This document shows, one piece after another, positions 25,603 through 64,000 of a stretch of 64,000 nucleotides of DNA. The notes beneath the pieces are model-generated. The model made no database searches, was not told where the DNA came from, and saw only the letters and a program-made list of their open reading frames with translations. Location: assembly GCA_963704725.1 (NCBI GenBank), contig OY969934.1:448001-512000 (forward strand), given 5' to 3'. The first letter of the stretch is position 1. Every line of letters starts with the position of its first letter. The position numbers and the translations under genes are program-made. Source of the stretch: an uncultured Actinomycetes bacterium (GTDB taxonomy: Bacteria > Actinomycetota > UBA4738 > HRBIN12).

Positions 25603-25932
25603 ATGAAGGACGGCTTCCAACGGATCGCATCGCTCGCGGAGGTGCCGGAGGGCGAGGTCCGCGCGTACGACCTTCCGGGTGCGCGCGTCGCCGTGGTGCA
25701 CGTGGAGCAGGAGCTCTTCGCGATCGCGGACGAGTGCCCGCACGACCAGAGCTCGCTGGCCGAGGGTGAGCTCGGCCGCGACGAGGACTCCGTGATCTGC
25801 CCCGGCGACGGGAGCGAGTTCGACCTGCGCACCGGCGAACCGCTCGAGGGACCGGCCGTCGACCCCATCCCGCTCTTCGCCGTCCGCGAGCGGGACGGCT
25901 GGATCGAGATCGGCCCGGCGACGGAGGCGTGA
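25603..25932 (+). CDS. Rieske-type [2Fe-2S] ferredoxin with atypical second ligand box
   Basis: FAIADECPH..SLAEG...ICPGDGSEFDLRTG; the second His is replaced by Asp. Confidence 0.8.
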   Translation: MKDGFQRIASLAEVPEGEVRAYDLPGARVAVVHVEQELFAIADECPHDQSSLAEGELGRDEDSVICPGDGSEFDLRTGEPLEGPAVDPIPLFAVRERDGWIEIGPATEA

Positions 25933-27404
25933 TGGCGGCCGAGCTCGAACCCCAGGCGATCGTGATCTTCGGCGCGACGGGCGACCTGACCAAGCGCAAG
26001 CTCCTGCCCGCCTTCTACCACCTGTTCCTGCGGGGGCGCCTTCCCCGCGAGTTCGCCATCGTCGGCTACGCGCGGAGCCAGCGGACCGACCAGGAGTTCA
26101 TCGAGGAGGCGCGAGACCACATCGCGCGGTTCTCGCCGCACGCGCCGGAGGGAGAGGCGTGGGCGGAGTTCTCGCGGCGCCTGTCCTACCTGGCCGGTGA
26201 GTTCGACGCGCCGAAGGCGATGAAGGGGCTCGTCGAGCATCTCGACCGCGTCGACGAACGGCACGGCACGCGAGGCGGACGGTTCTTCTACGCGGCCACG
26301 CCTCCCGCCGCGTACCCCGACATCGTGCACCAACTCGGCGAGGTGGGGCTGCACCGGGACGCGAAGGTCGTGTTCGAGAAGCCGTTCGGCCGGGATCTGG
26401 CCTCCGCCATGGAGCTGAACGCGACGATGCACGAGGTCTTCGAGGAGCGGCAGGTCTACCGGATCGACCACTACCTCGGCAAGGAGACCGTGCAGAACAT
26501 CCTGGCGTTCCGGTTCGCGAACGGCATGTTCGAGCCCGTGTGGAACCGCCGGTACATCGATCACGTACAGATCACCGTGGCCGAGTCGATCGGGATCGAG
26601 GGCAGGGGGGAGTTCTACGAACAGACCGGGAACATCCGCGACATGATCTCGACGCACCTGTTCCAGGTGATGACGTTCGTGGCCATGGAGCCCCCGGTCG
26701 CGTTCGAGCCGGATCTCCTTCGGGACGAGACCGTGAAGGCGCTGCGGGCCACGGAGGCATGCCGCCCCGACCGCGTGGTGCGTGGCCAGTACCGCGGGTA
26801 CCGACAGGAGGCGGGCGTCTCGGCCGAGTCCACCGTGGAGACGTTCTCGGCCATGGAGCTCCACGTCGACAACTGGCGATGGGCGGGCGTGCCGTTCTAC
26901 CTCCGCACGGGCAAGGGGCTGAAGGAGAAGATGAGCGAGATCACGCTCAAGTTCCGGCGGGTTCCCTTCAACGTCTTCAAGGAGACGGACTTCGCGAGCC
27001 GCAAGCGCGACCACCTGACGATCCGGGTCCAGCCGGACGAAGGCATCACGATCGCGTTCAACGCCAAGCGGCCGGGCCCGGGGATGCACCTCGACCGGGT
27101 GCGGATGGAGTTCGACTACGCCGAGGAGTACCCGAACCAGGAGATCGCCGACGCCTACGAGCTCCTGCTCCTCGAGGCTATGCGCGGCGACCATTCCCTG
27201 TTCATCCGTGAGGACGGCGTGGAGCGGGCGTGGCAGATCCTCCAGCCGGTGCTGGATCGGCCCTCGCCGGTCCGGCCGTACGACCAGGGGAGCTGGGGCC
27301 CCGCCGAGGCCGATGCCCTCATCGCGCCGCACCGGTGGCACGTATCCGGCGACGACGGATCGGCGGACGACGGTCTCTCCGCCGGCCACGACCTTCCTCC
27401 TTGA
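25932..27404 (+). CDS. zwf: Glucose-6-phosphate 1-dehydrogenase
   Basis: IFGATGDL, EKPFG, RIDHYLGKE, WAGVPFYLRTGK. Confidence 0.96.
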   Translation: MAAELEPQAIVIFGATGDLTKRKLLPAFYHLFLRGRLPREFAIVGYARSQRTDQEFIEEARDHIARFSPHAPEGEAWAEFSRRLSYLAGEFDAPKAMKGLVEHLDRVDERHGTRGGRFFYAATPPAAYPDIVHQLGEVGLHRDAKVVFEKPFGRDLASAMELNATMHEVFEERQVYRIDHYLGKETVQNILAFRFANGMFEPVWNRRYIDHVQITVAESIGIEGRGEFYEQTGNIRDMISTHLFQVMTFVAMEPPVAFEPDLLRDETVKALRATEACRPDRVVRGQYRGYRQEAGVSAESTVETFSAMELHVDNWRWAGVPFYLRTGKGLKEKMSEITLKFRRVPFNVFKETDFASRKRDHLTIRVQPDEGITIAFNAKRPGPGMHLDRVRMEFDYAEEYPNQEIADAYELLLLEAMRGDHSLFIREDGVERAWQILQPVLDRPSPVRPYDQGSWGPAEADALIAPHRWHVSGDDGSADDGLSAGHDLPP

Positions 27405-27466
27405 GCCGGCCCCCAGGCGGGCGGAGCGGTTAGGCTTCGCGCTCACTGCCCGAGGAGGGCCGCCAC

Positions 27467-28846
27467 ATGTCCGAGCGAACGCGCTTCGATCTCCCCTCCG
27501 ACCGCATCCCCCAGGCGTGGCAGAACCTCCTGCCGGTCATGGCAGCAGCGGGGGTTCCGCCACTCCCGCCGCTGCATCCGGGGACGAAGGAGCCGGTGAC
27601 CCCCGACCTGCTGGCGCCGCTGTTTCCCGAGGCGCTGATCCTGCAGGAGGTCTCGACCGAGGAATGGATCGACATCCCGGGCGAGGTCCTGGACGTCTAC
27701 CGGCTGTGGAGGCCGTCGCCGCTGTTCCGCGCCACCCGGCTGGAGCGCGCGCTCGACACGCCGGCGCGGATCTACGTCAAGTACGAGGGCGTCTCGCCCG
27801 CGGGCTCGCACAAGCCGAACACGGCCGTGGCGCAGGCGTTCTACAACAAGCAGGCGGGCGCCCGCCGCCTGTCGACCGAGACGGGCGCGGGACAGTGGGG
27901 GTCGTCGCTCGCGATGGCGTGCACGTTCTTCGACCTCGAGTGCCTCGTGTTCATGGTCAAGGCCTCATACGAGCAGAAGCCCTACCGCCGCATCTTCATG
28001 GAGACGTTCGGCGCCGAGGTCCGACCCTCGCCGACCTCGACGACGCAGGCGGGCAAGCGCGTCCTCGAGGCGCATCCGGACTCGACGGGGTCGCTCGGCA
28101 TCGCGATCAGCGAGGCGATCGAGATCGCCGCCACGAGCGAGGACACCAACTACTCCATCGGCTCGTGCCTCAACCACGTCCTGCTCCATCAGAGCGTGGC
28201 GGGGCTCGAGGCGAAGGAGCAGATGGAGATGGCCGGCGAGGTGCCGGACGTCGTCGTCGGCTGCGTCGGCGGCGGCTCCAACTACGGGGGGCTCTCCTAT
28301 CCGTTCATGGCGGGTCGCCTCCGCGGGGAGACGCCCGACATGCGGTTCCTGGCCACCGAGCCGGCGGCGTGCCCCACGCTCACCAAAGGGCGGTTCGCGT
28401 ACGACTTCGGCGACACGGCGCAGCTCACGCCGCTGCTCCCGATGTACACGCTGGGCCACGACTTCGTCCCGGCGCCGGTCCACGCCGGCGGCCTGCGCTA
28501 CCACGGTGACTCCCCGTCGCTGTCGCTCCTGGTGAAGAGCGGGCACATGGAGGCCGTCGCGTACACGCAGAACGAGGTGTTCGAGGCCGCAGTGCTGTTC
28601 GCGAAGACCCAGGGGATCGTGCCGGCTCCGGAGTCCGCGCACGCCATCCGCGGCGCCGTGAACGAGGCCGTCGCGGCGCGGGAGGCCGGTCGGGAACGCG
28701 TGATCCTCCTCGGCCTCTCCGGGCACGGGCACTTCGACATGCAGGCGTACGACGACTACCTGAACGGCCGCCTCCCGGAGGTGGAGTTCGACCCTGCGGA
28801 TCAGGAGGCGGCGCTGGCCGGCCTCCCCGATGTCCCGATCGGCTGA
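27467..28846 (+). CDS. trpB2: Tryptophan synthase beta chain-like PLP enzyme, TrpB2 type
   Basis: GSHKPNTA (PLP Lys), [49 protein letters not shown]. Confidence 0.92.
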
Positions 28847-29342
28847 GGTCTCCGTCCGGTCGCTCCGGCGCGACGATCTGGCGACGCTGAACCGCGAGCT
28901 CCCCACGTGGAGCTCGACCGAGTACGCGAGGCGGATGGCCGCGCAGGAGCGGGGCGAGCTGGTCCAGGCCATCGCGTGGGCCGGCGACGCACCCGTTGGG
29001 CGCGGCATGGTGCTCTTCCCCGCCCACGAGGAGTACTCGATCTCCTCGCTGCGCGAGCGCTGTGCCGAGGTCCGAGACGTCTTCGTGCCTGTGGAGCGGC
29101 GGCGGACGGGCGTTGGCCGGGCGGTGATGCGGGCGCTCGAGGACGCCGCCGCGGACCGGGGCGTTCGCCGCGTCGGCCTCACCGTCTCCGACTCTGAGGA
29201 CGCGGTGGCCGCCCGGGCGCTCTACGCCGGCCTCGGGTACACACGCGCGCACGGTCCCTTCATCACCAGCCGGTACCTCGAGGGTGACGATGGGCCGTTC
29301 CCGGTCTGCGCCGTCCTCGTCTACCTGACGAAGCAGGTGTAG
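28830..29342 (+). CDS. GNAT family N-acetyltransferase
   Basis: [17 protein letters not shown] acetyl-CoA motif; [10 protein letters not shown]. Confidence 0.82.
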
Positions 29343-29350
29343 GCGGACGC

Positions 29351-30604
29351 TCAGGGCTCGTTCGACACCTCGCGGAGCCGCCGCCGCAGGTACGCCGTCT
29401 CGCTCGGGTTGGTGGCGAGCTCGATCGCTCGCCCGTACGCTGCCGAGGCCTCGTCCCGCCGTCCCAGCCGGCGCAGGAGGTCGGCGCGGGCGGCATGGAA
29501 CAGGTGGTACCCGTCGAGCTCGCCGGCCAGCGCATCCATCAGCGCCAGCCCCCGCGCCGGGCCGTCGGCCATGGCGATGGCGACCGCCCGGTTGAGATCG
29601 ACCACGGGGGAGGGCGCGGTCTCGGCCAGCCGCCCGTAGAGCGCGGCGATCTGCGGCCAGTCGGTGTCCTCGGGCCGTGGCGCGCGAGCGTGCAGGGCGG
29701 CGATCGCGGCCTGGAGCTGGTACGGCCCCGCCCGTCGCGCCGCGATGGCGCGTTCGAGGGTGGCCAGCCCCTCATCGATCATGTCGTGATCCCACCCCGA
29801 GCGGTTCTGGTCCTCGAGCAGGACGAGCTCCCCTTCGGCGTCGGATCTCGTCTCGCGCCGCGAGTGCTGGAGCAGCATGAGGGCCAGGAGGCCGGCGGGC
29901 TCCGGCTCCGCCGGCATCAGCGCGGCGAGGACCCGGGCCATCCGGATGGCCTCGTCGCACAGCTCGGTGCGAAGGAGCGGGCCCGCCATCGCCGCGTACC
30001 CCTCGTTGAACACGAGATAGAGCACGGCCAGGACCCCGGGGAGCCGCTCGGGAAGCAGCTCCGCCGGGGGCACGCGATACGGGATCGCGGCCGCCCGGAT
30101 CTTTCGCTTGGCGCGGACGATCCGCTGCGCCATCGCCGGTTCGGCCACGAGGAAGGCCCGGGCGATCTCGCCGGTGGACAGCCCGCCCAGCGTCTTCAGC
30201 GTGAGGGCCACGCGAGCGTCCATCGGCAGCGCGGGGTGGCAGCACGTGAAGATCAGCCGGAGCCGGTCGTCGGGGATGCCGCTCACGTCGGTCTCGTCAC
30301 CTCCGAGCGCCTCGAGCGCGGCCAGGCGCTTCAGGGTCTCCGTGCGCTCGCGGAGGGCGCGCTCGCGCCGGAGGCGGTCGACGGCCCGGTTGCGCGCCGT
30401 GGTGGTGATCCAGGCCGCCGGGTTGTCGGGGACGCCCCGGCCGGGCCAGGACCGCAGGGCCTCGGCGAACGCTTCCTGCACTGCCTCCTCGGCCAGGTCG
30501 AAGTCCCCGAGGACGCGGATGAGGGTCGCGACCGCCCGCCCCCGCTCCTGCCGGAACAGCCGGTCGACGACGACGCGCGGGTCGATCCCTACTCCTCGCC
30601 CCAC
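29351..30604 (-). CDS. ECF sigma factor with C-terminal DUF6596/TPR extension (ECF42 group)
   Basis: [63 protein letters not shown]. Downstream of a DGPF gene; start approximate. Confidence 0.9.
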
Positions 30605-30945
30605 TCCATGATCGGACGAACCTCGACCGATCCTCGGCCGACGCTTGGGATCCTCGAGGCGGCCTCGATGGCCTCGTCCAGGTTCGCGCAGCGGATCAGG
30701 TAGTACCCGCCGAGCTGCTCCTTGGTCTCCGCGAACGGTCCGTCCGTCGTGATGGTCTTGCCGTCCTGCTCGCGGACCGTGGTCGCGGACGACGTGGCCT
30801 CGAGGGCCTCGCCGCCGAGGTGCCACCCCTTCTCCTGGAGCCAGGCCGTGTAGTCGGTCCACTTCTGGTTCTCGGCGTCGATGTTCTCCGGCGGCGATTC
30901 GTTCCAGGCGTTCTCGTCGCCGTAGATCAAGATCAGGTATCGCAT
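30589..30945 (-). CDS. YciI/DGPF family protein
   Basis: [21 protein letters not shown]; GAGGAGGAGG RBS. Confidence 0.92.
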
Positions 30946-31003
30946 CCCGCCTCCTCCTCAGCCGAGCGGCAGCCGGCCGGCCGTCGGGCCGGCTCACCCT
31001 ACC

Positions 31004-31030
31004 GACGAATGCGGCCGGTCGCTTTCGACA
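31004..31030 (-). promoter_or_regulatory. ECF42-type promoter TGTCGA-N17-CGTC
   Basis: Minus strand reads TGTCGA aagcgaccggccgcatt CGTC about 60 bp upstream of the DGPF gene, matching the known ECF42 consensus. Confidence 0.8.
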
Positions 31031-31036
31031 GGGGCG

Positions 31037-32201
31037 TCAGATCTGCAGGGTGACGGCCCGCTGGGGCAGGCCGAACGCCCGGGCGGCGGTCCGGATGCTT
31101 TCGCGCGCGAGGTACGAGTACCCGGCCGGCGTGAGGTGGATCCCGTCGCCGGCGCGCATCTCCTGCAGGACGCCGCGCTCGTTGCGCAGGTACGCCGAGT
31201 AGTCCCCGCCCCGGTTGGAGAGCAGCCGCCAGGCGTCGACGTAGGTGGCCAGGGGGTCGGCCTCGGCCGTCTCGCGGTAGATCTGGTTCACGCGTCGGTA
31301 GAAGGCCCACCGACGGTGGTCGCGGACGATGGGGATGCCCACCCACACGACGCGGGTGCCGTTCGCGGTCGCTTCGTGCAGGAACTCGGCCGCGCGCTCC
31401 TGGTACGACTCGATCCAGGCGGTGCTCCCGACCGGGATGTCCTGTCCATCGGGCGTGACCTGGGCCTGGTTGTCGTTCGAGCCGAACATCACGAACAGCA
31501 CGTCCGGCCGGACCTCGTCCTCGATCCGTCGCAGCGCGACCTGCCAGTTGAAGTAGTCCTGTCGCGCCAGGCCCGTGGACTGCCTGCCGAGCGGCAGCAC
31601 CCGGCTCACGTCCGCGTCGAACCATTCGGCGATCCCCGGTCCCAGCCCCTGCGAGAGCGAGTCCCCGACCACCGCGACGCGCAGCTTGGCTTCCTGCGTG
31701 GGGACTCGGATGGCCGGCGGCGGCGCCTCGCGATCCCCGCCGGACGACTGGCCGGTCCCGCCGCTCTGTGGCTGGCTTGGGGGCGAGGGCGACTCGCGCC
31801 CGTCGGAGGGCGTCCCGCACGACGCGGGGCTCGGTGACAGGTGGCGGGAGCGGCGGCAGGTCGAGCTCGGGCAGGACGAGCTCGCCGCCGGGTTGCTCGT
31901 CGGGATCGCGCCCGAGCGCCCGGACGACCAGGTCGCCGGCGCCGCCGAGCCCGAGCGCGTCGGAGACCGCCGACAGGGGTCGGAGCACGGCGAGCGCGGC
32001 CGACCTGCGGGCGCCGACCGGTCCCGTCTCCGCGTCACGCTCCAGGACGGGGGCGAACAGCAGCCCCCACACGACCAGGCACACGACGACGGTGATCGTC
32101 GCGTCCCGGGCCCGCACCGTCCGGCGCCCCGGCGCGGGGTGCCGGACCTCGGGCTCCGGGTCCTCGAGCGTGGGGCGCGGTGGCGTGAGCGTCTGGGCCA
32201 T
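31037..32201 (-). CDS. DUF459/SGNH-family O-acetyltransferase partner (PatB-like), one frameshift near 31830
   Basis: N-terminal TM in one frame; VVGDSL, FGSND and GDGIH in another; the break falls in a Pro-rich linker. Confidence 0.8.
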
Positions 32202-32203
32202 GG

Positions 32204-33631
32204 TCAGAACCGGAAGTAGATGAAGGGGGGGACGCCCTGGGGGCCGAGGGACGTGATCGCGAACAGAACGATCGCGGCGGCGGCCCCTTGGAGCACGGGG
32301 CCGAACCGGGCGAACGCCGTCTGGAGCTGCTCTGCGGGCGTCCGCGGGAGGTTCTGGAGCACCAGCATGCCGCCGATCGCGAGCGCGACGAGCGGGGTGA
32401 CGAGCTCGGATCCCCCGCCCCACCCTCGGACGAGCCGCCCGAGCACGTCGAACGCGGATCCGATCGAGTCGGCCCGGAAGAACACCCACCCCAGGCAGAC
32501 AAGGTGGAAGGTGACGACGCGGGCGCGCAGCACCGCCCACGGCGTCTCGGGCTCCGGGGAGCGCCCCCGCCTCACGCGGCGTGCCCGCCGCAGCCGGCCC
32601 ACCACCTGCCCGGCGCCGTGCATCCCGCCCCACGCCACGAACGTCCACCCGGCCCCGTGCCACAGCCCGCCGATGAGCATCGTGGCCATCACGTTGATCG
32701 CCGTGCGAGCCTCGCCGCCGCGGCTCCCGCCGAGGGGGATGTAGACGTACTCGCGGAGCCAGCGCGACAGGGTCATGTGCCACCGGCGCCAGAAGTCGCG
32801 CAGGGAGATCGCCGCGTACGGCCGGTCGAAGTTCTGGGGGAACTCGAACCCGAGCAGCAGCGCGGTCCCGATGGCGATGTCGCTGTACGCGCTGAAGTCC
32901 GTGTAGATGACGATCGCGTAGCCGTAGATCGCGAACAGGACCTCGATCGCCGAATGGGATCCCGGCGCGCCGAACACCGGATCGACGATCGTCGTCGCCA
33001 GGAAGCTCGACACCACGATCTTCTTGAACAGCCCGCCCATGATCAGGTACGCGGCGCGCGAGACGTCGATCGAGCCGCCGTCGCGGGCGCGGCGCACCTG
33101 CGGGAGCAGCTCGCCGCCGCGGACGATCGGCCCCGCGACCAGATGGGGGAAGAACGAGAGGTACACGAAGGCGTCGAGCCACGGCGCCGGCGTGATCTCC
33201 AGCCGCGAGACGTCGATGACGTAGCTGATCGCCATGAACGTGTAGAAGCTGATCCCGACCGGCAGCACGACCTGCAGCAGCGGGAGCGGGGCCGACATCC
33301 CGAGCCGGTCGAACGCGTTGGCCAGGTTCAGGGCGAAGAACCCGTAGTACTTGAACCACGCCAGCGGCAGCAGGAGCGCGACGACAGATGCCGCCGTGGC
33401 CACGCGGCGAGCGCGCTCGCCCTCCTGGCGTTCCACCCACAGGGCGCCGAGCTGCGCCACCGTGCTGACGAGGGCGAGGAGCCAGACGAGGTGCCAGTCC
33501 CACCACGCGTAGAACGCGTAGCTCGCGGCGAGCATGAACCACTTCCACGCGCGGCGGTGCGGGTTCAGCGCCCAGTGCAGCGCGAACACCACCGCGAAGA
33601 AGATCGCGAAGTCCGTGGTCGGAAACAGCAT
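32204..33631 (-). CDS. MBOAT O-acyltransferase (AlgI/PatA-like)
   Basis: LPVGISFYTF, FFPHLVAGPI, DFSAYSDIAIG, FWRRWHMTLSRWLREYVYIPLGG, GLWHGA. Confidence 0.93.
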   Translation of the reverse strand: MLFPTTDFAIFFAVVFALHWALNPHRRAWKWFMLAASYAFYAWWDWHLVWLLALVSTVAQLGALWVERQEGERARRVATAASVVALLLPLAWFKYYGFFALNLANAFDRLGMSAPLPLLQVVLPVGISFYTFMAISYVIDVSRLEITPAPWLDAFVYLSFFPHLVAGPIVRGGELLPQVRRARDGGSIDVSRAAYLIMGGLFKKIVVSSFLATTIVDPVFGAPGSHSAIEVLFAIYGYAIVIYTDFSAYSDIAIGTALLLGFEFPQNFDRPYAAISLRDFWRRWHMTLSRWLREYVYIPLGGSRGGEARTAINVMATMLIGGLWHGAGWTFVAWGGMHGAGQVVGRLRRARRVRRGRSPEPETPWAVLRARVVTFHLVCLGWVFFRADSIGSAFDVLGRLVRGWGGGSELVTPLVALAIGGMLVLQNLPRTPAEQLQTAFARFGPVLQGAAAAIVLFAITSLGPQGVPPFIYFRF

Positions 33632-33733
33632 GCAGTCTTGAGCCCTCGGCGCTCCGGGCCGGTGTGGGGTCACCGGTTCGGACGCCTCGGGCGGCCATGG
33701 GGTTTCTCCCAGGCGATAGGCTAGCGGACCGTC

Positions 33734-34903
33734 ATGGCGGGCGCTCCGGATCCCCTGGATTACCTGGCCATCGATCGTCTGCTCTCCGACGAGGAGCGCG
33801 AGATCCGCGGCGCGGTCCGCGCCTTCGTGGCCGAGCAGGTCCTTCCCGGTGTGGGGGAGTGGTTCGAGCGCGGGGAGTTCCCGCTCGAGGTGGCCAAGGG
33901 CCTGGCAGATCTCGGCCTGCTGGGGATGCACCTCGAGGGATACGGGTGCGCCGGTGCCAGCGCGGTGGCCTACGGTCTGGCGTGCCAGGAGCTCGAGTAC
34001 GGGGACAGCGGGTTCCGGTCGTTCGTGTCCGTCCAGGGCTCGCTGTGCATGTTCCCCATCCACCGGTACGGGTCGGAGGAGCAGAAGCAGCGGTGGCTCC
34101 CTCCGATGGCCCGGGGCGAGGTCGTGGGGTGCTTCGGGCTCACCGAGCCGGATTTCGGCTCGGACCCGGCCGGCATGCGCACCTCCGCCGCGCGCGACGA
34201 CGGCGGCTGGGTGCTGTCCGGCACGAAGATGTGGATCACCAACGGTGGGATCGCCGACCTGGCGATCGTGTGGGCGAAGACCGACGACGGCGTGCGCGGC
34301 TTCCTCGTGCCGACCGACTCGCCGGGCTTCTCGACGCGTGACATCCATCGCAAGGTCTCGCTGCGAGCCTCGGTGACGTCGGAGCTCGTCCTGGACGAGG
34401 TGCGCCTGCCGGTCGATGCGGTGCTCCCCGGTGTGACCGGCATGAAGGGGCCGCTGTCGTGTCTGACCGAGGCGCGGTACGGGATCGTGTGGGGCGCGAT
34501 GGGCGCGGCGCGCGCGTGCTTCCAGAGCGCGCTCGAGTATGCGAAGACCCGCGTGCAGTGGGGACGGCCGATCGGAGGGTTCCAGCTCACGCAGCGCAAG
34601 CTCGCCGACATGGCACTCGAGCTCAACAAGGGGGCGCTTCTCGCGCTGCATCTGGGACGGATGAAGGACGAGGGGCGCCTGCGCCCGGAGCACGTGAGTC
34701 TCGGCAAGCTGAACAACGTGCGCGAGGCGCTCACCATCGCGCGGGAGGCGCGGGGGATCCTCGGCGCGAGCGGGATCACGCTCGAGTACCCCGTGATCCG
34801 GCACATGAACAACCTCGAGTCCGTGCTCACGTACGAGGGCACGAACGAGATCCACACGCTGATCGTGGGCGAGGCGCTCACCGGTCTCCGGGCCTACGAG
34901 TAG
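33734..34903 (+). CDS. Acyl-CoA dehydrogenase, glutaryl-CoA dehydrogenase-like
   Basis: DSGFRSFVSVQGSL, FGLTEPDFGSDP, KMWITNG, TYEGT. Confidence 0.9.
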   Translation: MAGAPDPLDYLAIDRLLSDEEREIRGAVRAFVAEQVLPGVGEWFERGEFPLEVAKGLADLGLLGMHLEGYGCAGASAVAYGLACQELEYGDSGFRSFVSVQGSLCMFPIHRYGSEEQKQRWLPPMARGEVVGCFGLTEPDFGSDPAGMRTSAARDDGGWVLSGTKMWITNGGIADLAIVWAKTDDGVRGFLVPTDSPGFSTRDIHRKVSLRASVTSELVLDEVRLPVDAVLPGVTGMKGPLSCLTEARYGIVWGAMGAARACFQSALEYAKTRVQWGRPIGGFQLTQRKLADMALELNKGALLALHLGRMKDEGRLRPEHVSLGKLNNVREALTIAREARGILGASGITLEYPVIRHMNNLESVLTYEGTNEIHTLIVGEALTGLRAYE

Positions 34904-60590: not shown

Positions 60591-60647
60591 CGGCGCGGAG
60601 GGTAGCACCCGTGCCCGCTCGGTCCGCGGAGGCGTACCGTGGTGAGG

Positions 60648-62042
60648 ATGTCACCGGAGCGTCTCACCGCCCTCGACGCGTCGTTCCTGTACCTGGAGCG
60701 GCCGGCGGTGCACATGCACGTGGCCGGCCTGTCCGTGCTCGATCCGTCGACGCGGCCCGACGGACGGCTGCGGCTCGAGCACGTCGCGGCCGTGATGGCG
60801 TCGCGGCTGCACCTGGCGCCCCGCCTCCGGCAGAAGGTCGTGACCGTGCCCTTCGATCTCGCGCTGCCGGTGTGGGTGGACGACCCCTCCTTCGACCTCG
60901 GCTTCCACCTCCGCCGGGCCGCGCTGCCGGCGCCGGGCGGACGCCGGGAGCTCGCCGACCACGTCCAGCGTGTCCTGTCGAGACCGCTCGACCGGACCAG
61001 GCCGCTGTGGGAGCTGTACGTGATCGAGGGCCTGGAGGACGGGCTCGTCGCCTTGCTGATGAAGGTGCACCACGCGATGATCGACGGGCTCTCGGCGATG
61101 CGGCTCACCGCCGCGCTGTACGACCTGTCGCCCGAGCCGGCGTCCGAGGCCTCGCCGCAGCCCTGGTATCCCGAACCCGAGCCCTCGGCGCGGGACCTGC
61201 TGGAGCAGGCGGCGGTGGAGCTGGCGGGCCATCCCGTCCAGGCGGTCTCGACGGCGCTCGAGAACGTCCGGCGATCGCCGGCGCTGGCGGCGCTCGGCCT
61301 GGGGTCCGTCATGTCGGGGCTCCGAAGCGTGTTCGACATGGGCGCCCGGCCGTCCTCGCCCTTCGACGTCCGGATCGGCCCCAACCGCCGATTCGCCATG
61401 ACCGAGGCGCCCGTCCAGCGGTTCAAGGAGATCAAGGACGCCATGGGCGGGACCGTGAACGACGTGGTCCTCGCCGTCGTCGGGGGCGCGCTCTACCGCC
61501 TGCTGCGCTCGCGCCGGGAGCCGACGAAGGACCGCACGCTGCGGGTGCTCGTCCCGGTGTCGGTGCGCGGCGGGGGCGAGGCGGGGCTCGGCAACCGCGT
61601 CGCCCCGTCGTTCATCGACCTGCCCGTCGGGAGGATGTCGCCCAAGCGCCGCCTCGCCCTCGTGCGCGAGGGCACGCGTCACCTCAAGGACTCGATGATG
61701 GCGATGAGCGTCGACGCGATGATCTCGCTCGGCGCCTACGCCCCCGGTGGCCTGCTCGCCGCCGCCGCACGAGCCGCCAGCCGGGGACCGTGGTTCAACC
61801 TCGTCGTGTCGAACATCCCCGGCCCCCAGCAACCGATGTACATGGCCGGCGCCCGACTCGTCGCGAGCTATCCGTCGATGCCCCTCGGCGAGAATTCCGC
61901 GCTGTCGATCGCCTGCACGTCGCTCGCGGGCACGATGGCCTTCGGCCTCACCGGCGACTGGGACGGGATGCCCGACGTCGACCGCCTCGCGCTCGCCATC
62001 GACGAGTCCCTCGCCGAGCTGGCCAAGGGCGCCGGTCTCTAG
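60648..62042 (+). CDS. Wax ester synthase/diacylglycerol acyltransferase (WS/DGAT)
   Basis: RLTALDASFL, LDRTRPLWE, KVHHAMIDG, TVNDVVLA, NLVVSNIPGP. Confidence 0.93.
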   Translation: MSPERLTALDASFLYLERPAVHMHVAGLSVLDPSTRPDGRLRLEHVAAVMASRLHLAPRLRQKVVTVPFDLALPVWVDDPSFDLGFHLRRAALPAPGGRRELADHVQRVLSRPLDRTRPLWELYVIEGLEDGLVALLMKVHHAMIDGLSAMRLTAALYDLSPEPASEASPQPWYPEPEPSARDLLEQAAVELAGHPVQAVSTALENVRRSPALAALGLGSVMSGLRSVFDMGARPSSPFDVRIGPNRRFAMTEAPVQRFKEIKDAMGGTVNDVVLAVVGGALYRLLRSRREPTKDRTLRVLVPVSVRGGGEAGLGNRVAPSFIDLPVGRMSPKRRLALVREGTRHLKDSMMAMSVDAMISLGAYAPGGLLAAAARAASRGPWFNLVVSNIPGPQQPMYMAGARLVASYPSMPLGENSALSIACTSLAGTMAFGLTGDWDGMPDVDRLALAIDESLAELAKGAGL

Positions 62043-62045
62043 CGG

Positions 62046-62942
62046 TCACGACAGCTCGGCCAGCCAGCCCTCGACGGCCTCGAGCCAGCGCTCCGGGGCT
62101 TCCATCTGCGGGACGTGACCGACCTTGGGGAGCAGTCGCATCTGCCAGTCGGGATGGGCGGCGAGCGCGGCCTCCGCGTAGTGGAGCGGGACGAGGCGGT
62201 CCTCGCGTCCGTGGATCACCAGGACGGGGCCCTTCACCGAGGCCAGGATCCATGAGGCCGCCCGGCGACGTCGACCGAGCGCCATCAGCGACCGGGCCGA
62301 CTCGAGGAAGGCCGCGCCCGCGTCGTCGTCGGCCTGGTGGCGCAGGAGCTGCTCCACGTGCGCCCGCACCAGGTCGGGATCGATCGAGGAAGGGTCCGCC
62401 GCGACGATCCGCAACCCCAGTCGCACGGCCCGCTCGGCCTCGAGGCCGTTCAGGCGCTGACGGGAGACCCACTCGCCGACGCGGGGGACCTGGTAGAGGC
62501 CGAAGCCCACCATCACGATGGGAGCGGGAACCGCCCCCCGGACCCACGGGAACACGGAGTTCGACAGGACCAGGCCCTCGACCGAGGCCGGCTCGAGCGC
62601 CGCCTGGAGCATGGCGATCGCTCCCCCCATCGAGTTCCCGCACACGACCGCGTCACCCCCGACCATCCGCTCGATGAACGACGAAACGAGCCGGCGGTTG
62701 TCCGAGACCCGCGTGCGACGTCCCGCCCTCGGGGTCCGGCCGAACCCGGCCAGGTCGAGCGCGAGCACCCGCCCGTGCTTCGCGAGCCCCGGCCCGACGG
62801 CCAGCCAGGACAGCAGCGATCCGCCCAGGCCGTGCACGAGCACGAACGTCCGCTCGGCCGGTCCTTCCCACTCGACGTAGTGGGTCGGACCGTCGAGGTC
62901 GATCCATCGGCTCTGGGGAACCTCGATCGCCACCGTCGTCAC
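62046..62942 (-). CDS. Alpha/beta hydrolase
   Basis: VHGLGG, DLAGFG, GNSMGG, GREDRLVP, GHVPQME; GGAGG RBS. Confidence 0.9.
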   Translation of the reverse strand: MTTVAIEVPQSRWIDLDGPTHYVEWEGPAERTFVLVHGLGGSLLSWLAVGPGLAKHGRVLALDLAGFGRTPRAGRRTRVSDNRRLVSSFIERMVGGDAVVCGNSMGGAIAMLQAALEPASVEGLVLSNSVFPWVRGAVPAPIVMVGFGLYQVPRVGEWVSRQRLNGLEAERAVRLGLRIVAADPSSIDPDLVRAHVEQLLRHQADDDAGAAFLESARSLMALGRRRRAASWILASVKGPVLVIHGREDRLVPLHYAEAALAAHPDWQMRLLPKVGHVPQMEAPERWLEAVEGWLAELS

Positions 62943-63036
62943 CCTCCGTGCGCCGCAGCCATGATGCGCCGGGCGGACGCCTGCCGACGACCCCGGAGCT
63001 CCGAGGTCCCGGACGACGGGGGTAGACTCGGCCTCC

Positions 63037-64000
63037 ATGGTCCGGGTCCGCCTCCGCCCTCCGCTCCGCGAGCTCACGGGTGGGGAACGAGAGGTCTCCG
63101 TCGACGGCGCCACGGTGGGCGAGGCTCTCCTCCAGCTCGAGCGACGCCATCCCAAGCTGGCCGGCTGGATCCTGGACGATCAGGGCCGGGTGCGCGAGCA
63201 CGTCGCCGTCTTCCTGGACGGCGAGCGTGTGGGGGGAGAGGCCTCGGTGTCCGAGACGGCGAGCCTGGAGGTCATCGGCGCGGTCTCCGGCGGCTCCGAG
63301 CGCGCCGAGCTCCTCGTCGGCACGAAGAAGGGGCTGTTCGTGTTGCGGGGCGAGCGAGGCGGTCCGATGGACGTCGTCGCCCGCGCGTTCGCCGGCACGG
63401 CGGTCGAGTACGCGATGCGCGACCCGCGCACCGGGCGCTACTACGCGAGCGTGACGCACGGCCAGTTCGGCCCGCACCTGTATCTGACCGACGAGCCCAC
63501 CGGCGAATGGGAGCCGTGCGACGGCCCCCGGTTCGCGGACGGCGAGGACGCGAGCGTGAAGCGGATCTGGGTCGTGACGCCCGGCGAGGAGGACGGTCTC
63601 CTGTACGCGGGCGTGGACCCCGCCGCGCTCTTCGAGAGCCGTGACGGCGGCGCGACCTGGGAGCCGAACCGCGCCCTGTGGGATCACCCCGGCCGGCCCG
63701 ACTGGTTCCCCGGCGCCGGCGGCCTGATGGTCCATTCGATCGCGCCGTGGCCCGGCGACCCCGGCCGGCTCGCCATCGGCATCTCCTCCGTCGGGGTGTT
63801 CGTGACCGAAGACGGCGGATCCACGTGGGACGTGGGCAACGAGGGGATCGTGCCCCGGTACCTCCCCGAGGAGGCGCGATCACAGCCCTTCGGGCGGTGC
63901 GTCCACAACATGCACCGTTCACCCCTGCGGCCCGAGCGGCTGTTCATGCAGTTCCACGGGGGGGTCTACCGATCGGACGACGGCGGATGCTCGTGGACGG
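63037..64000 (+). CDS. MoaD/ThiS ubiquitin-like domain fused to a BNR/sialidase-like beta-propeller, runs off the window
   Basis: Manual translation: MVRVRLRPPLRELTGG...GATVGEAL..L...VAVFLDG...IGAVSGG continues in frame into SERAELLVGTKKGLF...SRDGGATW...TEDGGSTW...SDDGGCSW (Asp-box repeats). Confidence 0.85.
   Translation, partial: MVRVRLRPPLRELTGGEREVSVDGATVGEALLQLERRHPKLAGWILDDQGRVREHVAVFLDGERVGGEASVSETASLEVIGAVSGGSERAELLVGTKKGLFVLRGERGGPMDVVARAFAGTAVEYAMRDPRTGRYYASVTHGQFGPHLYLTDEPTGEWEPCDGPRFADGEDASVKRIWVVTPGEEDGLLYAGVDPAALFESRDGGATWEPNRALWDHPGRPDWFPGAGGLMVHSIAPWPGDPGRLAIGISSVGVFVTEDGGSTWDVGNEGIVPRYLPEEARSQPFGRCVHNMHRSPLRPERLFMQFHGGVYRSDDGGCSWT

Follow-up and report, generated by a model that had tools for sequence, protein, structure and literature searches.

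A ThiS/MoaD-type ubiquitin-like domain fused through its Gly-Gly motif to a seven-bladed Asp-box propeller: a conserved two-gene module and a candidate cleavable precursor

The stretch of DNA considered here, referred to as the window, comprises 64,000 nucleotides (nt) from an uncultured Actinomycetes bacterium (G000:C1:448001-512000) and belongs to one single contig of 3.45 Mb. Its last gene encodes a small ubiquitin-like (Ubl) domain whose Gly-Gly (GG) motif is followed, in the same open reading frame (ORF), by a beta-propeller. The frame continues for 359 nt beyond the window and ends at G000:C1:512359 (window coordinate 64359), giving a product of 440 amino acids (aa; P0001). Residues 82-86 read A-V-S-G-G, with the codons of Gly85 at 63289-63291 and of Gly86 at 63292-63294 (GGC GGC), and the in-frame sequence after Gly86 is SERAELLVGTKKGLFVL (starting S-E-R-A-E-L-L-V-G-T-K-K). 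The GC content at the three codon positions (0.74/0.55/0.92) is that of a coding frame in a high-GC genome. The original prediction, according to which an 86-aa domain ending in AVSGG (63289-63294) runs without a stop into an Asp-box propeller, is thus borne out by the ORF and by the Pfam matches. The elements of the gene are as follows:

63037..64000 in the window and on to 64359, + strand: Ubl-propeller fusion ORF, with an ATG start and stop-free to the end of the window
63037..63294, + strand: Ubl domain (ThiS/MoaD family, predicted beta-grasp), residues 1-86, matching PF02597 and ending in AVSGG
63289..63294, + strand: codons of Gly85-Gly86, the proposed processing site, fully conserved (100% columns) in 132 Ubl domains
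63295..63306, + strand: short linker S-E-R-A that joins GG to the first strand of the propeller, variable among fused homologs
63295..64000, + strand: N-terminal two thirds (residues 87-321) of a seven-bladed Asp-box propeller, matching the 3b7f family

The Ubl domain matches PF02597 (ThiS) with residues 9-86 over profile positions 6-76 of 76, ending exactly at GG, and scores 33.7-34.3 bits against a cut-off of 22.5 (E 3.5e-8 to 5.6e-8), which places it in the Pfam ThiS family. NCBIfam ranks SAMP1 (NF041918) first, with E 1.2e-13 and 51.3 bits, below the cut-off of 60 bits, and archaeal MoaD (TIGR01687) next, with 26 bits against a cut-off of 49.5; by these curated thresholds the domain lies outside both families. 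Its nearest solved sequences are SAMP1 (3po0, E 3.6e-6), a MoaD-related protein of Thermus (1v8c), 4n6e_B and CysO (3dwg_C). An AlphaFold2 model of the fusion, built from an alignment of 116 rows, has a mean predicted local distance difference test score (pLDDT) of 93.5 and a predicted template-modelling score (pTM) of 0.81. It gives the Ubl domain strands at 2-6, 19-22, 56-60, 63-65 and 76-81 and helices at 10-13 and 27-37, with mean pLDDT values of 84-95 per block of 10 residues across residues 1-80. The order of these strands and helices, together with the matches to solved beta-grasp proteins, is compatible with a putative beta-grasp fold. In the fusion product the Gly-Gly is internal (residues 85-86 of 440), unlike the free C-terminal GG that characterizes ThiS and MoaD.

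The remainder of the protein after the Ubl domain is covered by BNR/Asp-box and Sortilin-Vps10 Pfam matches, and the whole propeller (residues 87-440, 354 aa) has seven blades. The best PDB match of a profile built from 37 diverse relatives is 3b7f_A, with E 2e-127 over profile positions 5-358, followed by GH74 xyloglucanases at about 1e-22 and with partial coverage. The same entry is the top Foldseek match of the model (E 1.3e-32, target-normalised template-modelling (TM) score 0.90, root-mean-square deviation 2.2 Å, 34% identity), ahead of GH74, Ycf48 and DAIP, which appear as generic Asp-box propellers. Released in 2007 under the name ‘glycosyl hydrolase, BNR repeat’, 3b7f is Reut_B4987 (YP_299179.1) of Ralstonia eutropha JMP134, and it is a stand-alone propeller, while the window protein carries a Ubl domain in the same chain. 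The available text of a review on Asp-boxes treats it as a separate seven-bladed family, the ‘YP_299179.1 family’, without an assigned function (PMC2716378). From the DSSP string of the model we read the blades as 434-439 with 89-117, then 122-161, 176-210, 232-266, 289-322, 331-378 and 395-428; the last strand (434-439) closes blade 1, and the Asp-boxes (201-208, 257-264, 313-320, 368-375 and 417-424, plus a degenerate copy at 151-158) sit in the loops between strands 3 and 4. The full-length match in sequence and fold and the seven blades place the propeller in the 3b7f family, so that the fusion protein belongs both to Pfam ThiS and to this family.

According to the same review, Asp-boxes mark the bottom face of a propeller, and function usually resides on the variable top face (PMC2716378). 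Across 178 sequences, the near-invariant residues outside the Asp-boxes are T96, K98, W223, H233, C288, H290, Q305, H307, R392 and a PSDFGFP loop. In the model, all of them are predicted to lie on the top face, either where strands end or in loops, and the His/Cys/Gln cluster that they form resembles a metal-binding or active site. When propellers were clustered at 50% identity (719 clusters at E<=1e-30), most full-length members among the best 150 were stand-alone proteins of 350-380 aa; these 150 also include two Ubl-propeller fusions (P0121 and P0139) and one fusion to a Ser/Thr kinase (P0126). The latter, a metagenome cluster representative of 704 aa, has its kinase at 10-262 and its propeller at 309-663 and keeps the pocket residues T/K, H, CxH, QxH and R. 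This fusion hints at a sensing or binding role of the propeller.

The relation between the two components was examined in 141 loci, scanned with purpose-built hidden Markov models of the Ubl domain and of the propeller. A first set of 61 loci was drawn from the window genome and from other members of its order and phylum. The second set comprises 80 loci of species-representative metagenome-assembled genomes (Actinomycetota, Thermoleophilia, Gaiellaceae, Solirubrobacteraceae and others), all close relatives. Together they represent 139 distinct sequences, as two genomes were sampled twice, and include the unpublished genomes G029, G206, G154 and G011, on which no conclusion rests by itself apart from the observation on JAB in G206. 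The arrangements found are the following:

Fused in one unbroken frame: 50 of 141 loci (11 of 61 and 39 of 80)
Ubl as a separate ORF immediately upstream: 53 of 141 loci
Ubl as a separate ORF immediately downstream: 31 of 141 loci
Without a Ubl match: 7 of 141 loci

The pairing is therefore kept, either fused or adjacent, in 134 of the 141 loci. This census supplies the count of fused and split forms that had been called for, namely 50 against 84, and agrees with the statement in the original prediction that such Ubl and propeller genes, of no known function, usually occur as separate neighbours; the separate arrangement also exists in Betaproteobacteria. It also removes the concern that an assembly error had erased a stop after GG, as the unbroken frame recurs in independent assemblies. 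As to reads, a single DNA run shares 0.15 of the sampled words and no RNA run is listed; the contigs of the DNA run are those of relatives, and the junction bins (63233-63306) are uncovered. Fusions are easily overcounted by tblastn, for which 79 of the 80 loci match over about residues 1-439, but only 39 of them hold a single ORF.

Protein searches give a consistent picture. From 8000 candidates scored, 6506 reached E<=1e-3, and the best 120 of these are almost all of about 440 aa, most with PF02597 and BNR matches. At the junction, all 120 have (A/S/N)(V/I)SGG, then a variable linker and then (A/T)E(V/L)LVGT(K/R)KGLFVL. A propeller match over the full length at E<=1.1e-46 is present in 58 of the 201 genomes sampled from the phylum. 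Beyond Actinomycetota, a threshold of E<=1e-20 yields 61 records of plasmids or chromids, mostly from Ralstonia, Burkholderia and Cupriavidus. Among three annotated records that were opened, two (Ralstonia and Burkholderia) have a ‘MoaD/ThiS family protein’ ending in QALSGG-stop at 33-40 nt upstream of the propeller, itself annotated as ‘exo-alpha-sialidase’ or ‘hypothetical protein’. The Ubl and the propeller form a conserved, self-contained two-gene module, and the gene in the window is a genuine fusion of both components.

Lone propellers are also encountered. On plasmid NZ_CP023549.1 of Rhodobacter sp. CZR27 (25692-34786, L194) the propeller leaves no room for an adjacent Ubl and stands divergently beside egtB-egtD (ergothioneine synthesis), a sulfur-related neighbour seen in this one case. 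Four loci (L073, L074, L075 and L099; family f27, genomes of 7.5-9.2 Mb) form a propeller clade without an adjacent Ubl, and the best Ubl-like matches in these genomes (E 8e-13 to 1.2e-11) are located elsewhere.

A propeller tree of 141 rows (FastTree, SH-like support values only) was rooted on four divergent rows of the downstream type. It requires one change between ‘downstream’ and ‘upstream or fused’ and three changes between fused and upstream, the fused rows being paraphyletic at the base of a clade of 103 rows that holds one large and one small upstream-split clade. The pattern can be explained by at least one fusion and later fissions, or by several fusions; support for the backbone is weak, and no polarity is claimed. 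The divergent fused P0139 falls among the downstream-type rows, on a long branch with a support of 43, as a fourth change, and this placement suggests an independent fusion. Fusions in the reverse order, propeller before Ubl, were sought among three longer matches to the downstream-type Ubl; none was found, which is weak evidence on this point. In the one candidate, P0274 (434 aa, a single member on a contig of 1361 nt), an Arg-rich stretch that looks out of frame replaces the last blades before a normal Ubl, and it is probably a frameshifted gene call and not a true fusion.

Conservation of the Ubl domain is centred on its C-terminal motif. In an alignment of 132 complete domains (50 fused, 53 upstream-split and 29 downstream-split), G85 and G86 are the only 100% columns (132/132), followed by P39 and R53 (0.99) and D47 (0.98), against a mean top-residue fraction of 0.61; the rows share kinship, and these fractions describe the sample rather than independent trials. 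The divergent fusions P0121 and P0139 also keep SGG. What follows GG is free to vary. Linkers of fused homologs differ in sequence and length, most having 2-3 residues (31 of 39 fused loci in the set of 80) and the longest 22-25, and the model has its lowest confidence at this point (mean pLDDT 64 in block 81-90). Among 82 split Ubls, 50 end exactly at GG (29 of 53 upstream and 21 of 29 downstream), and the other 32 have 1-13 residues past it (ER, SR, SRS, AYG, G, GTG, APAPVR). Two other small ThiS-family proteins of the genome (89 aa and 80 aa) end exactly in GG-stop. If a free glycine matters, the tails of the split Ubls imply that trimming is normal in the family.

A second Ubl fusion exists in the same genome:

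G000:C1:1960854-1962047 (L112:1483-2676), + strand: TtuB-TtuA fusion of 398 aa, with ThiS, TtuA_LIM_N and PP-loop domains

This fourth ThiS match of the genome consists of a ThiS/TtuB-like domain of 64 aa followed by a 2-thiouridine synthetase of the TtuA type. Its junction reads ...IRPVISGG|SGPVNRMKCRRCK, that is VISGG|SGPVN with a linker SGPVNR, and shows the same SGG|S as the window gene. In 41 related genomes, TtuB-TtuA is one ORF in 12 and has its Ubl ORF immediately upstream of ttuA in 10, so that a Ubl-enzyme pair of known type shows the same variation between fused and split forms. According to work on Thermus TtuB, the chemistry reportedly uses the free C-terminal glycine of the Ubl.

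The surroundings of the module are less constant than its two components. A divergent alpha/beta hydrolase gene separates the fusion gene from a gene for a wax-ester synthase (WS/DGAT), and on the other side lies a gene for a SigB-like sigma-70 factor:

60639-62042 in the window, + strand: gene of a WS/DGAT wax-ester synthase on the upstream side, in synteny with the fused gene at 7 of 61 loci
L003:4936-5907, + strand: SigB-like sigma-70 gene, downstream, syntenic with the fused gene in 6 of 61 loci

Nearly all of these cases are among close relatives; WS/DGAT and sigma-70 are local synteny and remain outside the module. At window 63036-63039, a CCATGG contains both the ATG of the fusion gene (+) and an in-frame Met40 ATG (-) of the alpha/beta-hydrolase ORF (62046..63155). 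The TTG start listed for this ORF overlaps the fusion gene by 119 nt, and the hydrolase therefore probably begins further in. Homology clustering of the 592 genes called in the 61 loci revealed no conserved third gene, with no other cluster present in more than 10 of 61 loci; the recurring clusters correspond to the WS/DGAT, sigma-70 and alpha/beta-hydrolase synteny and to promiscuous families such as ABC ATPases, histidine kinases and response regulators.

The factors that a GG-terminated Ubl could use are encoded elsewhere in the genome:

G000:C1:2464567-2466094 (L106), - strand: the only Prok-JAB and the only ThiF-type activating enzyme (E1) above cut-off, side by side, identified by profile matches

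The JAB (JAMM) gene occupies G000:C1:2465759-2466094 and the E1 gene G000:C1:2464968-2465678. These two genes are followed by an 89-aa ThiS ending in AVAGG-stop, an InhA-like MAM-domain protein and a PALP enzyme (cluster at about 2.4646-2.4661 Mb). The JAB-E1-ThiS-PALP cluster looks like the CysO/Mec type. No rhodanese domain is seen in the E1 ORF of this locus, and rhodanese genes occur separately in the genome. A separate MoaE is encoded at G000:C1:1346015-1346350, and an 80-aa MoaD-like protein ending in GG-stop is also present. Seven PF02738 (MoCoBD_1) matches, read as six genes since two of them abut, are found in the genome, none of them near the module. JAB, in any architecture, has a match in 40 of 41 relatives, including, by our reading of the tables, all fused genomes of that sample, and in 133 of the 201 phylum genomes. 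By hand cross-tabulation, it is found in 54 of the 58 phylum genomes that have the propeller and in 79 of the 143 others, a comparison confounded by relatedness.

Fusions of a Ubl to its partner protein are known, and two of them are informative. MoaX (Rv3323c), the fused MoaD-MoaE molybdopterin synthase of Mycobacterium tuberculosis, is reported to require cleavage between Gly82 and Ser83 for activity (PMC4326299). In Deinococcus radiodurans, DRJAMM is reported to cleave the DrMoaD-MoaE fusion (PMC8832034). Like the window gene, MoaX joins an N-terminal MoaD-type Ubl via Gly-Gly to a partner, with a GG|Ser junction and in an actinobacterium, and MoaD-MoaE of Deinococcus, cut there by a JAMM protease, likewise has its Ubl fused through Gly-Gly to a partner protein. 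In contrast to MoaX, the partner here is a seven-bladed Asp-box propeller, P0001 lacks PF02391 (MoaE), and cleavage is only proposed; with no MoaE domain after GG, the window gene is not a fused molybdopterin synthase of the MoaX type.

We infer that the 440-aa product may be a precursor that is cut after Gly86, which would free a carrier that works with the propeller; we assign this reading a probability of roughly 0.5. The cut between Gly86 and Ser87 would be made by a GG-directed peptidase, for which the only Prok-JAB/JAMM of the genome is the candidate; its gene adjoins that of the only ThiF-type E1. Once released, the Ubl could be adenylated by this E1 and perhaps thiocarboxylated. Its C-terminal tail would then act at the conserved top-face His/Cys/Gln pocket of its cognate partner, the cytoplasmic propeller. 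The topology of the model is consistent with such a cut: the linker after Gly86 is predicted to enter strand B of blade 1 at the bottom (Asp-box) face, and with a linker of 2-3 residues the GG should not be able to reach a top-face pocket unless the chain is cut. The precursor reading is favoured by this topology, by the conserved pairing of the two components, by the invariance of GG next to a variable linker, by the TtuB-TtuA parallel, by the tails of split Ubls, by the JAB and E1 genes present in the genome and by the MoaX and DRJAMM precedents. A further argument is that no fusion in the order propeller-Ubl is seen, an order that would leave GG free and could not be resolved by a GG peptidase. 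A complex prediction between the Ubl (1-86) and the propeller (87-440) gave a score of 0.02, run with no controls, and counts neither way.

Several observations weigh against a cleaved precursor. Cleavage, adenylation and sulfur transfer are all proposed steps, and the topology argument depends on the DSSP string of a predicted model. The fused state persists across many species and is thus not deleterious as such. The 32 of 82 split Ubls with tails past GG are equally well explained if a free GG is dispensable, and the window Ubl scores under the NCBIfam cut-offs for SAMP1 and archaeal MoaD. Genetic linkage is also missing: E1, JAB and rhodanese genes, for which inspection of the downstream sequence had been proposed, are not found near the window gene, the JAB-E1 pair lying about 1.95 Mb away, and phmmer with the E1, JAB and PALP of the genome against all ORFs of the 141 loci gave 0 E1, 0 JAB and 2 PALP matches. 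Four propeller-bearing genomes have no JAB match (PF14464, PF01398). Two of them, G049 and G197, are 100% complete and have a downstream Ubl with GG-stop; G060, 93% complete, has a tailed Ubl, and the unpublished G206, 96% complete, is fused. The co-occurrence with JAB does not discriminate between cleavage and its rivals.

The most serious alternative is that the fusion is never cleaved and that the Ubl stays docked on the propeller for good, as a beta-grasp domain with a structural or regulatory role of the TmoB-type or adaptor kind, GG being kept by descent and local structure. In its favour, the fused form is stable over a wide range of species, at 50 of 141 loci and with few changes in the tree; the same can be said of the 32 of 82 split Ubls that do not end at GG, the lack of an E1 or JAB gene in any of the 141 flanks and the fused genome without a detectable JAB (G206); among solved structures, the MoaD-related 1v8c (168 aa) has extra sequence past its MoaD-like part. 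It accounts less well for GG, the one pair without any variation in 132 Ubls although the positions just after it change freely, or for the diverse basal Ubls of the downstream type, most of which end in GG-stop (21/29). The changing gene order speaks for two separable proteins, and the known fused cases MoaX and DrMoaD-MoaE are cleaved. Permanent docking is thus possible rather than probable. The original prediction had opposed a precursor cleaved by a JAB-type peptidase to a Rosetta-stone fusion with a structural Ubl: the Rosetta-stone pairing stands, with 50 fused and 84 adjacent cases, and between a cleaved and a structural Ubl the balance leans towards cleavage.

A second alternative considers the Ubl as a protein modifier conjugated in the manner of SAMP, TtuB or Urm1, with no role as a sulfur donor, the propeller being its target, a ligase-like partner or a reader, and Lys98 a candidate acceptor. 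SAMP1 is the best family match of the Ubl (NCBIfam, E 1.2e-13) and also its best solved match (3po0); the window Ubl resembles it in length and in its GG end, but it is bacterial, fused and paired with a propeller, and its 51.3 bits are under the 60 required. K98, in the first turn of the top face, is conserved at 97%, tails past GG are typical of modifier precursors, and the kinase-propeller P0126, which keeps all pocket residues, gives a hint of signalling or binding. No E2/E3-like or dedicated E1 gene is linked to the module, and the PADLOC models of known anti-phage Ubl systems return 0 families at E<=0.01. On balance, a role as modifier seems improbable.

Much less likely is a propeller acting as a glycoside hydrolase (sialidase or GH74-like) to which the Ubl would be incidental. 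The record names ‘glycosyl hydrolase, BNR repeat’, ‘exo-alpha-sialidase’ and ‘sialidase family protein’ point in this direction, as does the rank of GH74 enzymes as next-best structural matches. GH74 enzymes have two tandem propellers against a single one of 354 aa here, and their target-normalised TM scores are 0.19-0.31 at 12-17% identity; P0001 has no BNR_2 (PF13088) match at E<=0.01. A signal peptide is absent: the Ubl is N-terminal here, and the first strand of the propeller is where split forms begin. The conserved association with a GG-Ubl, in 134 of 141 loci, would also be left aside, and by its architecture the fusion is neither GH74 nor GH33. Finally, an artefact of assembly or sequencing, in which a stop was lost or the frame shifted between two genes, deserves next to no credence. 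The upstream-split forms do differ from fused ones only by a junction stop or a change of frame, and one clearly frameshifted chimera (P0274) exists in databases. Against this, the frame is unbroken in 39 of the 80 species-representative genomes and at 11 of the 61 other loci, the SGG junction is unbroken in all 120 proteins of the best-match list, fused forms make coherent clades and the window comes from a single contig of 3.45 Mb.

A broader proposal can be tentatively made, to which we give distinctly less weight than to the precursor itself. The propeller might represent a new class of Ubl-dependent enzyme, either a metal-containing (His/Cys/Gln) sulfur transferase or a Ubl ligase, using the C-terminal glycine of its own dedicated GG-Ubl. 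In that case the fusions would correspond, in bacteria, to the ubiquitin-fusion precursors of eukaryotes, and a JAMM peptidase that also serves the CysO, TtuB and MoaD pathways would mature them in trans.

Comparison with known systems helps to place the module. MoaD-MoaE, ThiS-ThiG, CysO-CysM, CysO-BexX (4n6e) and TtuB-TtuA all resemble the window pair in that a GG beta-grasp protein is adjacent or fused to the enzyme that uses it, and the Ubl of the window gene matches CysO (3dwg_C) and 4n6e_B by sequence. Unlike these sulfur-carrier pairs, the window gene contains no known sulfur-accepting enzyme fold and has no linked E1 or JAB. To our knowledge, sulfur-carrier and Ubl proteins have a handful of partner enzymes, namely MoaE, ThiG, CysM, BexX and TtuA. 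ThiS-ThiG and MoaD-MoaE fusions appear in the survey by Iyer et al. 2006 (PMC1779556). A propeller partner is not mentioned in the passages searched of the classic beta-grasp surveys (PMC1779556, PMC1949818) or of the Asp-box review (PMC2716378), and no description of a ThiS/MoaD-propeller pair was found in the literature searched, which excluded most subscription journals.

The module ties a dedicated GG-Ubl to a partner of a completely different fold, through adjacency in either order and repeated fusion, and in two phyla. If the Ubl is released and activated, this would point to an undescribed pathway of sulfur transfer or tagging in soil bacteria, and the fusion together with TtuB-TtuA would show that GG-directed precursor processing is routine in bacterial Ubl biology. 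If the fusion remains uncleaved, a strictly conserved GG would have a non-canonical role. Under either reading, the fusion names the propeller as the partner of the Ubl.

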